This document shows, piece by piece, positions 3,298-7,643 of a DNA stretch of 7,643 nt. Origin of the DNA: a virus; IMG/VR virus record IMGVR_UViG_3300008222_000107. One strand, written 5' to 3'. Within the stretch, counting starts at the first letter, position 1. The number at the start of each line of letters is the position of its first letter. The position numbers and the translations under genes are program-made. The notes under the pieces were generated by a model that searched no databases, was not told the DNA's origin, and saw nothing but the letters and a program-made list of their open reading frames with translations.

Positions 3298-3333
3298 ATA
3301 TATTTAACCTTAAATTATTATCAGTGAAACAAC

Positions 3334-3380
3334 GACACGTTGAAACTAAAATTAATATAGACACTCAGTTTCAATGTGTC
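3334..3380. promoter_or_regulatory. Candidate operator: 13-bp inverted repeat GACACGTTGAAAC (3334-3346) / GTTTCAATGTGTC (3368-3380), 12 of 13 complementary, with a third TGAAAC at 3325-3330
   Basis: Read directly from the sequence. The right arm overlaps the -35 element and spacer of the minus-strand promoter. The left arm lies just downstream of its predicted start site. Confidence 0.4.
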
Positions 3381-3382
3381 AA
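3354..3382 (-). promoter_or_regulatory. Sigma70-type promoter for the structural/assembly operon (gV-position gene through zot)
   Basis: The minus strand reads TTGACA (3382-3377), a 17-nt spacer CATTGAAACTGAGTGTC, then TATATT (3359-3354). The -35 is consensus, the spacing is optimal and the -10 matches 5 of 6. It lies about 55 nt upstream of ATG 3297. Confidence 0.6.
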
Positions 3383-3391
3383 TTTTTATTT

Positions 3392-3419
3392 TTGACAAAA
3401 AGACTATAATTGATATACA
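3392..3419 (+). promoter_or_regulatory. Candidate divergent promoter for the 63-aa regulator gene
   Basis: The plus strand reads TTGACA (3392-3397), a 16-nt spacer, then TATACA (3414-3419), preceded by TG at 3411-3412 (extended -10-like TGaTATACA). This -35 lies back to back with the minus-strand -35, 9 nt apart, forming TGTCAA-n9-TTGACA. The -10 is imperfect, so confidence is modest. Confidence 0.35.
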
Positions 3420-3452
3420 ACAAATATGTTACATACAAAAAAGCAGTAAAAT

Positions 3453-3644
3453 ATGTCAAAAACAAAAACGGTAAGAATGAAACATGAGGATGCTTTCATT
3501 GTAGAACAAGCAGCAAGAGAGCTTGCAGCTGAGTTACAACAGGAAGTTATAGTTAGTCAATTATTAAGGGAATTAATGAAAGATGTACCAAAAGCAAAAG
3601 AAAGACTTAAAAACAAACTTATTAAACTTAGCGAAAAAAAATAA
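3453..3644 (+). CDS. Small 63-aa putative transcriptional regulator, ribbon-helix-helix (CopG/Arc/MetJ)-like pattern
   Basis: It is the only plus-strand gene. It is divergent from the structural operon and convergent with rep. MSKTKTVRMKHEDAFIVEQAARELAAELQQEVIVSQLLRELMKDV fits a short beta strand (TVRM), helix, turn, helix, followed by a Lys-rich tail. Its own terminator follows. The SD is weak. The fold is assigned by pattern only. Confidence 0.55.
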   Translation: MSKTKTVRMKHEDAFIVEQAARELAAELQQEVIVSQLLRELMKDVPKAKERLKNKLIKLSEKK

Positions 3645-3660: not shown

Positions 3661-3712
3661 TTAAAAAAAAGATTACAAAATTAATTTGTAAAGGGGTGAT
3701 TTAATCACCTCT
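3661..3712 (-). terminator. Candidate terminator for rep (the convergent, bidirectional partner)
   Basis: On the minus strand the 3712-3692 hairpin is followed by a second hairpin: TTACAAA (3691-3685), loop TTAAT, TTTGTAA (3679-3673). Then comes TC plus a T8 run (3670-3663). The second stem is AT-only, so its strength is uncertain. Confidence 0.4.
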
Positions 3713-3723
3713 TTTATTTTTAT
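3692..3723 (+). terminator. Rho-independent terminator for the regulator gene
   Basis: AGGGGTGA (3692-3699), loop TTTAA, TCACCTCT (3705-3712). This is an 8-bp stem with one G-U pair on the plus-strand transcript, followed by TTTATTTTTAT. The rep stop codon (3703-3701) sits in the loop. Confidence 0.6.
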
Positions 3724-5278
3724 AATCATAAATTGCCCTATCAAAAACATTCATATTAATACGAGTAAAATCACCAGTGATTAAATGATTTTTATGTTCA
3801 TTTTTAATTTTACTTTTATATGGATTTGAGAGAGATTTGTTTTCAGTGCTGATCCAGTTATCAGTATTAATTTGTAAATCTTCTGAAACTGTATTTCTAT
3901 TTGAAAAATTATCATAATATTCTTCAAAACTATCATATTCATTGTTAAATAATAATTGAGCGATAGCTTTAGAACCACCATTTTCGGCAAGCTGACAAAC
4001 AACAGAACGAAGTTTGTTTTTTAAAATAAATTCCCATTCTTCAGGGGTTATGTAACATAGAAAATCGGCTTTATCTTCCTCTTGAGATATTATATCTTCA
4101 TCAGAAGAATCTTTACCAAGTTCAAAAAATGCCCTTAAACCTTTTGACCATTTAATTAACGTAGTGCCAACAAAAGCACGAGCATAATGCAAAAATAAAA
4201 TTTTATTTTTTTGTCTTTCTTCTTTATCTTCTAATTCAATTGAATTGCTCAATAAATCCCAAGGAGATGAAGATTTTTTACGCCCTGTTTTTGTATTGCC
4301 TTTTGTCATTTCGTCTGCCATATCCCAAGTGACTTTTTTACCTGTTTTAGTTTCTAAAAATTCATCATCTGAGCCAAATTTAGTAATATATTCCCCTGCT
4401 TTTTCACCGTTTGAAATATCAAAACCATACTCATTAGGACAATTAAGACCAGAACGGACAACCATAGTTTTCCATCGATTAAATAACCATAAATAATCAA
4501 AATTATCCTGTTTGGTTGGTATTTTAATTTTACTAAAAATAATAATATGGAAATGAGGATGCCAACCATTAGAACCATGGCGAACTTCAAAAGATCTAAT
4601 ATTACCGACAACACCAAACCTATTTTTGAATTTGCGCATAGGAGCACCAGCCCAAAACTTAGCGTTGGAAAAAGAAATTTTTTCTTTTAATTCGTCCAGC
4701 ATATCTCCAGCATTATGAGGAGCTGTTAAGGTAATCATTGAAATTTTTAATTTTTGTGCTTTGGCAATGTTGAAAGCGACACGCATTTCATTCGATTTTC
4801 TTTCAGTAATTTTAGCTGAGCAAACAGGACAAGTACGAGAATTTGCACAAGTTAAAAGACCACTAAAAAAAGCTTTCCCATTGGTTTTAGATTTAACAAT
4901 GTCAACGGTTTGAGATTTTCGAAATTTTGTACAAGTGCAAGTTCTATGATGAACATCATAGCCTTTTGCATTAACGGGAACATTTGAACCATGAAAACCA
5001 TACAGGATATTAGCAGCAGCATCTTGTAATTTATAACGAGTTTCTCTAGCTAAATTTACAGCATCTTTTTGATTGATAGCCCCATGTATAAGGCTTTCCC
5101 CTGTTGAAAAATCAACATATTCATTTTTTTTTCTAGTGTATTTTTCAGGGGGGGTACATAACTCCGTAGCATTACCGAGAGCGCTACTCGCTTTTCCTCG
5201 TTGCTCAGGCTTCGCCCTCGTCAACGCTCGCACGCGCTTCAAAGGTTGAAAAGAGGATTTTTGTTGATTATACTTCAT
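3701..5278 (-). CDS. Rolling-circle replication initiator (HUH endonuclease), pC194/Rep_1-like motif set, 525 aa
   Basis: Motif 1 is ISMITLTAPHN (the FLTLT type). Motif 2 (HUH) is WHPHFHIIIF, with H-P-H-F-H at 4561-4547, checked by hand. Motif 3 is GEYITKFGS, with candidate catalytic Tyr297 at 4390-4388. An upstream Cys cluster, LLTCANSRTCPVCSAKITERK, resembles the C..RFCP.C motif of pC194-family Reps. A long C-terminal extension follows. Confidence 0.85.
   Translation of the reverse strand: MKYNQQKSSFQPLKRVRALTRAKPEQRGKASSALGNATELCTPPEKYTRKKNEYVDFSTGESLIHGAINQKDAVNLARETRYKLQDAAANILYGFHGSNVPVNAKGYDVHHRTCTCTKFRKSQTVDIVKSKTNGKAFFSGLLTCANSRTCPVCSAKITERKSNEMRVAFNIAKAQKLKISMITLTAPHNAGDMLDELKEKISFSNAKFWAGAPMRKFKNRFGVVGNIRSFEVRHGSNGWHPHFHIIIFSKIKIPTKQDNFDYLWLFNRWKTMVVRSGLNCPNEYGFDISNGEKAGEYITKFGSDDEFLETKTGKKVTWDMADEMTKGNTKTGRKKSSSPWDLLSNSIELEDKEERQKNKILFLHYARAFVGTTLIKWSKGLRAFFELGKDSSDEDIISQEEDKADFLCYITPEEWEFILKNKLRSVVCQLAENGGSKAIAQLLFNNEYDSFEEYYDNFSNRNTVSEDLQINTDNWISTENKSLSNPYKSKIKNEHKNHLITGDFTRINMNVFDRAIYDYKNKRGD
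5246..5274 (+). promoter_or_regulatory. Candidate plus-strand promoter inside the 5' end of rep, firing antisense across the rep leader
   Basis: TTGAAA (5246-5251), a 17-nt spacer AGAGGATTTTTGTTGAT, then TATACT (5269-5274). Both hexamers match 5 of 6 at optimal spacing. The predicted start near 5281 lies just beyond the rep ATG (5278-5276). Confidence 0.5.
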
Positions 5279-5280
5279 TT

Positions 5281-5366
5281 GTCTAGCTCGCAGTCGTTGT
5301 CGTGATGATTAAAGCAAAAAGACATAAGGGTTGAATGTTTTGGCGAACGTTCAACCCGTTTTTTTG
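5281..5366 (+). ncRNA. Candidate ~85-nt antisense RNA (countertranscript) complementary to the orf91-rep intergenic leader, including the rep ribosome-binding region
   Basis: It is bounded by the promoter at 5246-5274 and the intrinsic terminator at 5328-5365 on the same strand. No plus-strand ORF lies in the interval. The ends are predicted, not measured. Confidence 0.4.
5328..5366 (+). terminator. Textbook rho-independent terminator on the plus strand
   Basis: GGGTTGAATGTT (5328-5339), loop TTGGCG, AACGTTCAACCC (5346-5357). This is a 12-bp stem with one G-U pair on the plus-strand RNA, followed by G plus T7 (5359-5365). On the minus strand the same stem has an A-C mismatch and the T-run lies 7 nt away. 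It therefore reads best as a plus-strand terminator. Confidence 0.65.
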
Positions 5367-5410
5367 CTTAAAATATAATAATCTAAATATTCATACTAAA
5401 CCAGAAGTTA

Positions 5411-5686
5411 TCACTTAGCGGCACTTTCAAAAGTTAATTCAACAAATTCACCAGAACTTAAAGGCAAAGCGTTAAATAGAGAATTCATTGAAGAAAAGGA
5501 ACGTAAAGAATTTTTCTGAGTAACTAAATTATATACTGACAATTCAGAACGAACTGAAAGCTCAACAAAAAAAACATCTGAATCATGGTTGTAACAAACA
5601 ACTAATTTAGAATCATCACAATCAAAATATTTAGAAATAAACTCATTTAATTGCAGGGTTTTTCTTTCGATTTTAGAGTAAGACAT
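5411..5686 (-). CDS. Hypothetical 91-aa protein, first gene of the putative orf91-rep operon
   Basis: ATG at 5686 has SD AGGAA with 7-nt spacing, and a good promoter lies upstream. The protein is soluble with no TM segment. I recognise no family. Confidence 0.6.
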   Translation of the reverse strand: MSYSKIERKTLQLNEFISKYFDCDDSKLVVCYNHDSDVFFVELSVRSELSVYNLVTQKNSLRSFSSMNSLFNALPLSSGEFVELTFESAAK

Positions 5687-6716: not shown

Positions 6717-7643
6717 CTAAGTTGAATTAGAAACATCACTACCTTGTGGTCGTTGTTTTTCTATCTTTCTTGGTGGGCAATAAGCATATCTGAAGTTATC
6801 TTCTTTAAATATTTTTGCAGAACATTCATTAACAAAACGAACAACAAAACCCATTTGTTTTAGGTTATCACCACTTAAATAATACTTTTCAGTGCCTTTT
6901 ATAAGTGTAAAAAGATATTCCCTTTGACGGTTATTTTTGTTTTTAATATCAACATAGCCATTGAAATATATTTCATTGGCTCGATATGGCAAATCTACAG
7001 AAATAGGGCTTTCATTACTATTCTGAATAGCGTTAGTAATATTAGAAATATTAGGACTTTTAGTAGTGGCTTCGCTAGATAGTGAAATATTTTTACCAAC
7101 ACTTTCTTCAATCCTTTCAGCAGCTGTTGCTTTATCTTCTTTAATAAAGAGCCACCATGTCGCATAACTGAAACAAAGAAATAATAGGGCGATAGTAAAA
7201 ATAAGTGTAGGATCTTTAAACGCGTTAAGTGCTCCAGCTTTTGTTGTTTTTCCCGTGCTTGTACTTCTATAACATTTGTGTACTTCGACTGGCACTCTTC
7301 GCCATTTAACCTGTTCACCTTTTTTAGCGGTGACACCTGTTGATTTTGGGCTATGTTCATTTATTCGTGGTCTCCGCTTAAAGTAAGGTATAAATTCAAG
7401 AGATTCATTGTATTTATGGAAGTAAGCAAATTCACAAACAGAGCGAACTAGTTTATGAATTTCAGATATTTCAGGGGTACAGTAAATGATATCCCAATTG
7501 TATTTACGGTGACGCATATTGGCTTCACGCATTAATTTTGGATAAAGAATAAAACCATCATCATCAAGGATTAATTCTCCAGTATCATCTGTAGAGCCTT
7601 CATCAGTTTCAGGAGTGAATTTTTTTCTTTCTGAAACTGAATA
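6717..7643 (-). CDS. zot: Zot / gene-I (pI)-like assembly protein, C-terminal part. It covers residues 127-434 of the 434-aa protein, and its 5' continuation is 1-501 through the circular junction.
   Basis: The frame is open from the right edge of the window to the stop at 6717. The listed ORF (6717-7532) begins only at an internal Met. MRHRKYNWDIIYCTPEISEIHKLVRSVCEFAYFH matches the Zot core as I recall it (HRHHGWDICLTTPNIAKVHNMIREAAEIGYRH). A single TM segment (LIFTIALLFLCFSYATWWLFI) is followed by a ~140-aa C-terminal domain, the pI/Zot topology. Confidence 0.9.
   Translation of the reverse strand, partial: YSVSERKKFTPETDEGSTDDTGELILDDDGFILYPKLMREANMRHRKYNWDIIYCTPEISEIHKLVRSVCEFAYFHKYNESLEFIPYFKRRPRINEHSPKSTGVTAKKGEQVKWRRVPVEVHKCYRSTSTGKTTKAGALNAFKDPTLIFTIALLFLCFSYATWWLFIKEDKATAAERIEESVGKNISLSSEATTKSPNISNITNAIQNSNESPISVDLPYRANEIYFNGYVDIKNKNNRQREYLFTLIKGTEKYYLSGDNLKQMGFVVRFVNECSAKIFKEDNFRYAYCPPRKIEKQRPQGSDVSNST
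7521..7643. repeat. Terminal redundancy, right copy (identical to 1-123)
   Basis: Base-for-base identity with 1-123; 7521 corresponds to base 1. Confidence 0.97.

Follow-up and report, generated by a model that had tools for sequence, protein, structure and literature searches.

A conserved candidate antisense RNA gene opposite the rep leader of a metagenomic inovirus with a plasmid-type initiator

The window analysed here is the whole 7,643-nt stretch of viral DNA filed as IMG/VR record IMGVR_UViG_3300008222_000107, and it carries the genome of an inovirus (filamentous phage) with a gene for a rolling-circle initiator, rep, on the minus strand. We find that the plus-strand interval 5246-5366, at the 5' end of rep, probably encodes, in cis, a small non-coding antisense RNA, or countertranscript, that belongs to a plasmid-type replication module. 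Its parts are an antisense promoter inside the first codons of rep (P_as), a predicted RNA with two stem-loops (SL1 and SL2) lying opposite the rep leader, and an intrinsic terminator whose hairpin is SL2 (Table 1). Among the papers accessible to our literature search, none linked inoviruses with countertranscripts or antisense control of rep.

A first-pass annotation made from the letters of the window had reported a near-consensus plus-strand promoter in the first codons of rep, and the promoter is indeed found there (TTGAAA-17-TATACT, 5246-5274; 10/12, the third-best promoter-like site of the window). Because such a match in a single AT-rich genome is at chance level, comparison with relatives is the sole evidence that the promoter/terminator pair is real. 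Relatives were identified by a search with the Rep protein, which gave the inovirus contigs L001-L009, L077, L080 and L085 with Reps 46-60% identical to that of the window phage, and L163 was added by a DNA-pattern search; their common gene order, as seen by tblastn, is Zot, variable genes, rep, a reversed 63-aa open reading frame (ORF), ssb, coat, pIII and pVI. Among 20 loci, the -10 hexamer ends at rep position +4 in 12 and at +7 in 7, and the top pick in L006 ends at +10, with an equal-scoring site also present at +4. The -35 hexamer, TTGnnn, starts at +32/+33 in 11 loci. In all others it starts at +35/+36, save in L006, for which the script picked TTCACC at +38 and TTGATT at +32 is also present. 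The -10 hexamer of other lineages is TATAAT, TATTAT or TATCAT at +4 or +7, and the two hexamers in the relatives are 17-18 nt apart, as confirmed with a separate tool for L004 and L085. In the alignment of the seven members of the closest clade (A2), TTG and TATA.T are invariant, and the spacer is fixed in length and variable in sequence. Promoter sites have a background density of 0.0013 per nt per strand. At +1 to +12, an antisense promoter scoring 9/12 or better is present for 11/16 rep starts vs 4/115 other ORF starts in the same genomes, and one scoring 8/12 or better for 16/16 rep starts.

It is also evident that the encoded protein does not account for this conservation. The peptides over the hexamers differ between relatives (MKYNQQKSSFQP, MNYIDKVSVNQD, MNNSKQFDGFTT and others), and the -35 hexamer is encoded as FQ, NQ, LQ or via other reading frames: its TTG corresponds to the Gln codon CAA in one clade and falls in other reading frames in L004, L005 and L007. 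Because both the peptides and the reading frames differ, the conserved object is the DNA motif and not the protein. The terminator behaves in the same manner. In the window clade its stem occupies rep -50 to -79, and L004, L005 and L006 have a hairpin at -49 to -83 with sequences unrelated to those of the window clade; the T-run is found on the antisense side only in L004, L005 and L008, and a run of T7-T8 followed by GC is invariant in A2. The first-pass annotation had proposed to look for the promoter and terminator in related genomes, and there the hexamers, their 17-18 nt spacing and the antisense terminator recur at the same rep positions in at least six inovirus lineages, including those with other amino acids over the hexamers and those with unrelated hairpin sequences.

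The predicted RNA is placed to start about 7 nt past the -10 hexamer and to end in or just after the T7 run. The 86-nt sequence folds with -27.3 kcal/mol (z = -3.4, 0/200 shuffles equal). The first inspection had described the terminator as a 12-bp stem with a 6-nt loop and G plus T7, which is the same hairpin as the 13 pairs and 4-nt loop obtained if the closing U.G is counted, and had judged that it folds better on the plus strand (G-U) than on the minus strand (A-C); SL2 alone is in fact 5 kcal/mol more stable on the plus strand (-16.8 vs -11.8 kcal/mol). The transcript had also been described as non-coding, and this agrees with what we see: the window interval has a 9-codon ATG ORF whose start codon is absent in the relatives (alignment A3), and no ORF is conserved. 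As to the SL2 loop, which by eye reads UUGG, UUCG, UUUG and UUAG within the clade, a YUNR U-turn was considered and rejected, chance being too likely and the sequences too related.

Evidence for an RNA also comes from covariation within the clade. The consensus structure of its seven members (RNAalifold) begins with a 5' tail of about 12 nt, which is followed by SL1 (8 pairs), a linker and SL2, the terminator. Of the cells, 97.9% pair, and 8 pairs show compensatory double changes; 0/500 shuffles reach this, and controls slid along the alignment have at most 48% of cells paired. SL1 has compensatory double changes at 5/8 consensus pairs with 96% of cells paired, and in SL2 all cells pair, with compensatory changes at 2 pairs (5 sequences) or 3 pairs (7 sequences). 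Read on the antisense strand, the helices contain 105 Watson-Crick, 37 G.U and 3 unpaired cells, and the same helices read on the sense strand contain 105 Watson-Crick, 0 G.U and 40 unpaired cells; many SL1 pairs are G.U pairs that become A.C mismatches in sense RNA. The hairpin is more stable as antisense than as sense RNA in 9/9 lineages. This strand test is decisive in placing the selected structure, as far as sequence comparison can place it, on the plus (antisense) strand. A covariance model built from the seven clade sequences (R1) scores 86 bits on the plus strand vs 31 bits on the minus strand at the window locus, and finds L163 (62.7 bits) and L006 (32 bits), neither of which was used in training, each directly upstream of rep; a weak match, likewise untrained and directly upstream of rep, was found in the Ancylomarina contig L050 (25 bits).

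The antisense unit is linked to Rep_1 genes in general. We took 85 non-redundant regions upstream of Rep_1 genes, drawn from metagenomes and from contigs of phages and bacterial genomes, and counted terminators within 220 nt of the predicted rep start. An antisense-oriented intrinsic terminator lies upstream of rep in 54/85 loci and a sense-oriented one in 19/85, and in 16 of these 19 both are the same bidirectional hairpin. The terminator is antisense-only in 38 loci vs sense-only in 3. Of the loci with an antisense terminator, 46 were analysed for promoters: an antisense-strand site of at least 9/12 lies 25-150 nt before the terminator in 24, vs 3 on the sense strand of the same windows, and at a threshold of at least 10/12 the counts are 12 antisense vs 0 sense. 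Relatives of at least 50% GC have an antisense -10-like hexamer, often TAGAAT, in 12/22 cases vs 1/22 on the sense strand. The cultured Pseudomonas phage PMBT54 has A12 and a hairpin upstream of rep, which read on the antisense strand is a terminator; the paper describing this phage does not mention it. In L088 and L089 (also in L090-L093), a 47%-identical rep recurs every ~2.4 kb, with three copies in L089, and these contigs look like concatemer assemblies of a 2.4-kb rep-only replicon, either plasmid or satellite. The L088-L093 replicons carry the antisense terminator upstream of rep. Because these rep-only replicons have the antisense unit, as do phages that lack the 63-aa ORF, the unit belongs to rep and not to its neighbours.

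These counts bear on the proposal that the hairpin is a sense or bidirectional terminator or attenuator, which ends transcripts of the upstream gene orf91 or limits read-through into rep, with the promoter match being incidental. The window clade does have A7 before the hairpin and a T-rich stretch after it on the sense strand (TTATGTCTTTTTGC), a sense-oriented terminator occupies the same place in 16/85 loci, and promoter-like sites occur at chance frequency in the phage genome. However, we regard this explanation as unlikely, given the excess of antisense-only over sense-only terminators (38 vs 3), the lack of a sense T-run in L004, L005 and L008, wobble pairs that fit the antisense strand only (37 to 0), the weaker sense hairpin in 9/9 lineages, the conserved position of the antisense promoter, and the fact that orf91 is not conserved upstream of rep. 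Within the window clade, the hairpin could serve as a sense attenuator as well as being part of the antisense RNA.

The target of the countertranscript would be the leader of the rep mRNA. In this leader, a weak GAG Shine-Dalgarno-like triplet and a conserved block, GAGCAGACAA, precede the ATG, and the antisense RNA is complementary to it from about -3 to -88. That the transcript is fully complementary to the leader including the Shine-Dalgarno region, as had been claimed at the outset, thus follows from geometry. The window phage, L001, L004, L005 and L009 have a sense -10-like hexamer with its end at rep -94 to -99, and in L007 and L008 such a hexamer lies just upstream of the hairpin. An AAATATA[AG]TAAT block at the putative rep promoter (P_rep) is conserved in A2. 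If this is P_rep, rep mRNA would start near the 3' end of the antisense RNA, and therefore the whole 5' untranslated region could be paired; P_as and P_rep would then be convergent and about 100 bp apart.

We propose that the host sigma-70 RNA polymerase would start at about 5281 from the hexamers inside rep codons 2-4 and 10-11, run away from rep and stop at the hairpin and T7 (5328-5365). The resulting RNA, presumably an unstable one, would pair with the rep leader, cover the ribosome-binding region and lower Rep translation, and the duplex might be cut by RNase III. Every replicative-form (RF) molecule would make the RNA, whose level would follow RF copy number, and the result would be negative feedback on rolling-circle initiation and perhaps inhibition in trans of incoming related phages. 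By analogy with what has been proposed for plasmids pC194 and pUB110, blocking of Rep translation is the most likely mode of action, and we infer that the RNA would act on translation rather than by attenuation or transcriptional interference. Since several lineages (L004, L005, L008) have no U-run on the sense side, attenuation is less likely to be the mode that is conserved.

A different possibility is that the act of transcription matters and not its product, either through interference with the convergent P_rep or through negative supercoiling behind P_as that would aid Rep at a candidate origin. P_as and the putative P_rep do face each other, and a strongly conserved CT[CT]GGTA... motif lies on the sense strand 65-95 nt behind P_as. 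Nevertheless, P_rep is weakly predicted, and the covariation and G.U pairs of SL1 and SL2 point to selection on an RNA fold, beyond transcription alone; we therefore consider this possibility quite unlikely.

The motif belongs to an island of about 30 nt at ~5150-5182 on the minus strand, in the otherwise variable N-terminal part of rep, which carries CTCGGTAATGCTACG. Conservation of the island holds for the DNA itself, every synonymous site included: CT[CT] GGT AAT GCT ACG [AG]AG TTA CGA ACC CCC CC (aa LGNATELRTPP). The island is also present in L001-L009, L085 and L157 (there at ~258-290); a wider consensus is about CCCTTGGTAnnAATGCGAAAT. Its core, CT[ACT]GGTA, occurs near the rep start on the sense strand in 60/82 non-redundant Rep_1 loci and on the antisense strand in 1, vs a background of 0.05 per 450 nt, and it resembles CTTGATA, which we take to be the nick site of the pC194 family. 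We regard the island as the probable plus-strand origin, which would lie within rep at 65-95 nt behind P_as. Inside rep there is also an inverted repeat at 5098-5112 / 5140-5154 (CCCCTGTTGAAAAAT / ATTTTTCAGGGGGGG; 80% complementary, 27-nt spacer), which adjoins the conserved CCCCCCC end of the island and could be part of the origin. Two other candidates for the nick site were discarded: the heptamer CTTGATA itself has two plus-strand matches, which are at chance level and unrelated to the interval, and the hairpin was rejected because its loop is not conserved between lineages.

The interval might also act as single-stranded DNA (ssDNA) of the viral strand, either as a minus-strand origin primed by RNA polymerase or as a packaging signal, with the antisense RNA serving as primer. 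An RNA templated on the viral (sense) strand would have antisense sequence, and the region adjoins rep. At the minus-strand origin of the Ff phages (M13/f1), RNA is made on a viral-strand template. The ssoA origin likewise uses a viral-strand-type template for its RNA (PMC5703833). For the interval, however, such a role appears highly unlikely: a search found no inverted repeat that would render the -35/-10 region double-stranded in ssDNA, the sense-strand ssDNA of 5130-5420 has an unexceptional fold (z = -1.6, 11/200 shuffles equal), the strand with the genes and the nick-like motif has A.C mismatches in the hairpin, and the linear 17-18 nt spacing of the hexamers is a feature of duplex promoters. 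Neither a sense or bidirectional terminator, nor the act of transcription, nor an ssDNA origin explains the strand-specific covariation together with the duplex promoter geometry.

Several observations weigh against a countertranscript. The promoter match in the single genome is no better than chance, the window having 30 promoter-like sites vs 31.5 +/- 5.6 in shuffles, and the AT-rich codons 2-4 of rep could explain part of the -10-like sequences. The promoter reaches only 8/12 in L005, L084 and L088-93, no T-run is detectable in L007, and the lineages are related, which means that their counts are not fully independent. The A7 and sense-strand T-rich stretch around the window clade's hairpin count on the same side, as does the weak or unclear Shine-Dalgarno sequence of rep, which blurs what would be occluded. 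Finally, cmscan of the whole window with E up to 1 found no Rfam family of countertranscript RNA (ctRNA) or small RNA, such as ctRNA_pGA1, ctRNA_pT181, ctRNA_pND324, CopA or RNAI; the only Rfam match on the interval, mir-987, was dismissed as chance (25 bits vs a gathering score of 98). It might thus be asked whether the interval is a chance match in AT-rich DNA without function, as the near-shuffle counts of promoter-like and terminator-like sites (7 of the latter vs 4.3 +/- 2.1) would allow, but all the comparative results oppose chance, and this explanation is very unlikely, indeed hardly credible.

Table 1. Features of the candidate countertranscript locus and its surroundings in the window
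Feature	Position	Strand	Remarks
P_as -35, TTGAAA	5246-5251	+	overlaps rep nt 28-33, codons 10-11
P_as -10, TATACT	5269-5274	+	overlaps rep nt 5-10, codons 2-4
Predicted antisense RNA, ~86 nt	5281-5366	+	5' tail, SL1, A-rich linker, terminator SL2
SL1	5292-5310	+	7 pairs in the window (AGTCGTT / GATGATT), 5-nt loop
SL2, terminator hairpin	5328-5357	+	13 pairs (5 G-C), loop UUGG
U-tract of the antisense terminator	5358-5366	+	G (5358), T7 (5359-5365), G
Putative target, rep mRNA leader	5279-5366	-	rep nt -1 to -88
Putative P_rep, TTTAGT-17-TATATT	5372-5400	-	8/12; -10 at 5377-5372, -35 weak
rep (putatively regulated gene)	3701-5278	-	525 aa, Rep_1 (pC194-type) rolling-circle initiator
orf91	5411-5686		upstream of rep; no Pfam or PHROG match
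63-aa ORF	3453-3644	+	between rep and the ssb-like gene; only convincing plus-strand gene
Zot		-	Pfam PF05707
Other minus-strand genes		-	pVI-like DUF2523, pIII-like, coat, 100-aa ssDNA-binding-protein candidate

The genome in which the element lies is a 7,520-nt circularly closed inovirus genome, because the ends of the window repeat each other exactly over 123 nt (1-123 = 7521-7643, direct repeat); the Zot/pI ORF (Walker A GAPGSFKS) crosses the circle junction, and all structural and replication genes are on the minus strand. An exact-protein look-up found identical copies of the phage only, in two JGI metagenomes (3300025731 and 3300025738), and hence no micro-variation; a near-match search of INPHARED with the phage found none, and the protein search returned distant phages only. 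Its hosts are probably Gram-negative marine bacteria, as inferred from the ~33% GC and the metagenomic sources. That the Rep is pC194-like, as the first-pass annotation had it, is confirmed by Pfam (PF01446 Rep_1, E 2.6e-9, 37.3 bits vs a cut-off of 33.2). The protein also matches PHROG 11698 (E 1e-66), and it is ~32% identical to the Reps of 2-3 kb plasmids, with about equal similarity to other phages.

The first-pass annotation had likened the locus to pMV158, in which rep is controlled by a CopG repressor together with a countertranscript. The countertranscript half of this likeness stands, and the CopG half does not, as orf91 is not conserved and a ribbon-helix-helix fold of the 63-aa protein could not be confirmed. 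The initiator is Rep_1 rather than Rep_2. The proposed CopG-like partner, orf91, is without a family match, and L009 alone among the relatives has it upstream of rep, ~900 nt away; this is its only tblastn match, in a fetched stretch without a Zot match; as a Cop analogue it was rejected for want of both matches and synteny. The Zot-rep segment 5411-6545, which contains orf91 and orf250, is a variable accessory region, and its secreted-looking 250-aa protein has no tblastn match in the relatives checked and no family match. The only conserved small ORF is the 63-aa ORF, which L001, L003, L006, L007 and L080 have downstream of rep on the other strand, at 44-69% identity. Searches of Pfam, PHROGs and PDB profiles gave no match to it, hhalign detected no similarity to PMBT54 ORF2, a reverse ORF in the equivalent place that is annotated MatP_C, and a single-sequence AlphaFold2 (AF2) model of the 63-aa protein consists of one long helix. 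Across a divergent control region (3298-3452), the ORF faces the genome's strongest promoter (TTGACA-17-TATATT, 3382-3354, minus strand), and it is probably a transcriptional regulator of the phage. Where the ends of rep (minus strand) and the 63-aa ORF (plus strand) converge there is an 11-bp hairpin, AAAGGGGTGATTTAATCACCTCTTT, at 3690-3714, with a plus-strand T-run after the stem (TATTTTTATA). It would terminate the transcript of the 63-aa ORF, keeping such transcripts from antisense passage through rep, and it may act on rep too.

To our knowledge, the restraint of RF copy number in filamentous phages is known in detail only for Ff (pV, pX) and a few integrating phages with repressors. A conserved rep countertranscript would show that a large, mostly metagenomic group of inoviruses has adopted a plasmid initiator plus its RNA copy-control circuit; it would give a concrete regulator for such phages, the cultured relative PMBT54 included, and one that is likely to determine incompatibility or superinfection exclusion between relatives. 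It also suggests an annotation rule for metagenomic Rep_1 replicons, which is to inspect the 5' end of rep for a promoter and a terminator in antisense orientation. The hairpins are wholly different between lineages and the architecture is fixed. It is conceivable, though doubtful, that the antisense RNA is the main factor setting specificity or immunity in a large uncultured group of inoviruses of the Rep_1 type and in their 2.4-kb rep-only relatives, that lineage-specific hairpins define groups of incompatibility or superinfection exclusion, and that the cassette of rep, countertranscript and internal origin is a module mobile between small plasmids and filamentous phages. If the exclusion part of this were true, resident phages would silence the rep of incoming relatives in trans.

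Among filamentous phages, Ff offers a parallel in the logic of control: its ssDNA-binding protein pV binds the leader of gII mRNA and controls gene II, which is post-transcriptional control of the initiator at its leader and couples replication to the progress of infection. In Ff, however, the repressor is a protein and not an antisense RNA, and the initiator is of a different family. The Xanthomonas filamentous phage Cf has a small untranslated immunity RNA, cM1, for which RNA-RNA pairing on a leader is proposed, but it serves the lysogenic immunity of an integrating phage. Among plasmids, RNAI/RNAII of pT181 and RNAIII of pIP501 are similar to the candidate in being countertranscripts in the rep leader with two stem-loops, and the window clade has a U-rich stretch after the leader hairpin as they do; attenuation in these plasmids nevertheless needs a leader terminator induced by the antisense RNA, for which L004, L005 and L008 lack the sense U-run, and pT181 uses a Rep_trans initiator whereas the phage uses Rep_1.

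The worked example is RNAII of pMV158, for which inhibition of translation has been demonstrated and which is both a copy-number sensor and an incompatibility determinant (PMC4485353). Like the phage candidate, it is cis-encoded, opens with a single-stranded 5' tail and closes with an intrinsic terminator hairpin plus U-tract, and its complement in the mRNA lies immediately before the rep start, where the phage RNA would have the same role. It differs in that pMV158 has a Rep_2 initiator and the phage protein matches Rep_1 only, that RNAII has 48 nt and one hairpin vs ~86 nt (predicted) and two in the phage, and that cop is co-transcribed directly upstream of rep, whereas orf91 is an unconserved accessory gene with no DNA-binding signature. 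Because orf91 is not conserved and a ribbon-helix-helix (RHH) fold of the 63-aa protein is unconfirmed, the closest plasmid analogue is pC194/pUB110 and not the CopG plus RNAII of pMV158. In pC194 and pUB110, antisense RNAs across the Rep translation start were predicted and proposed to block Rep translation (PMC5703833, summarising Alonso & Tailor 1987; Maciag et al. 1988), and these RNAs are themselves only partly characterised. The two plasmids share with the phage the same initiator family (Rep_1) and a module of rep promoter, leader and countertranscript. They differ from it in that the element here is a filamentous phage and not a plasmid, with no detectable sequence or Rfam relationship between the RNAs, that their hosts are Firmicutes whereas those of the phage are probably Gram-negative marine bacteria, and that the candidate nick motif of the phage lies inside rep and not upstream. 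Cis-antisense control of a rolling-circle initiator is classical in plasmids, and what is new here is the phage setting, that is, the scope and context of such control and not its principle.

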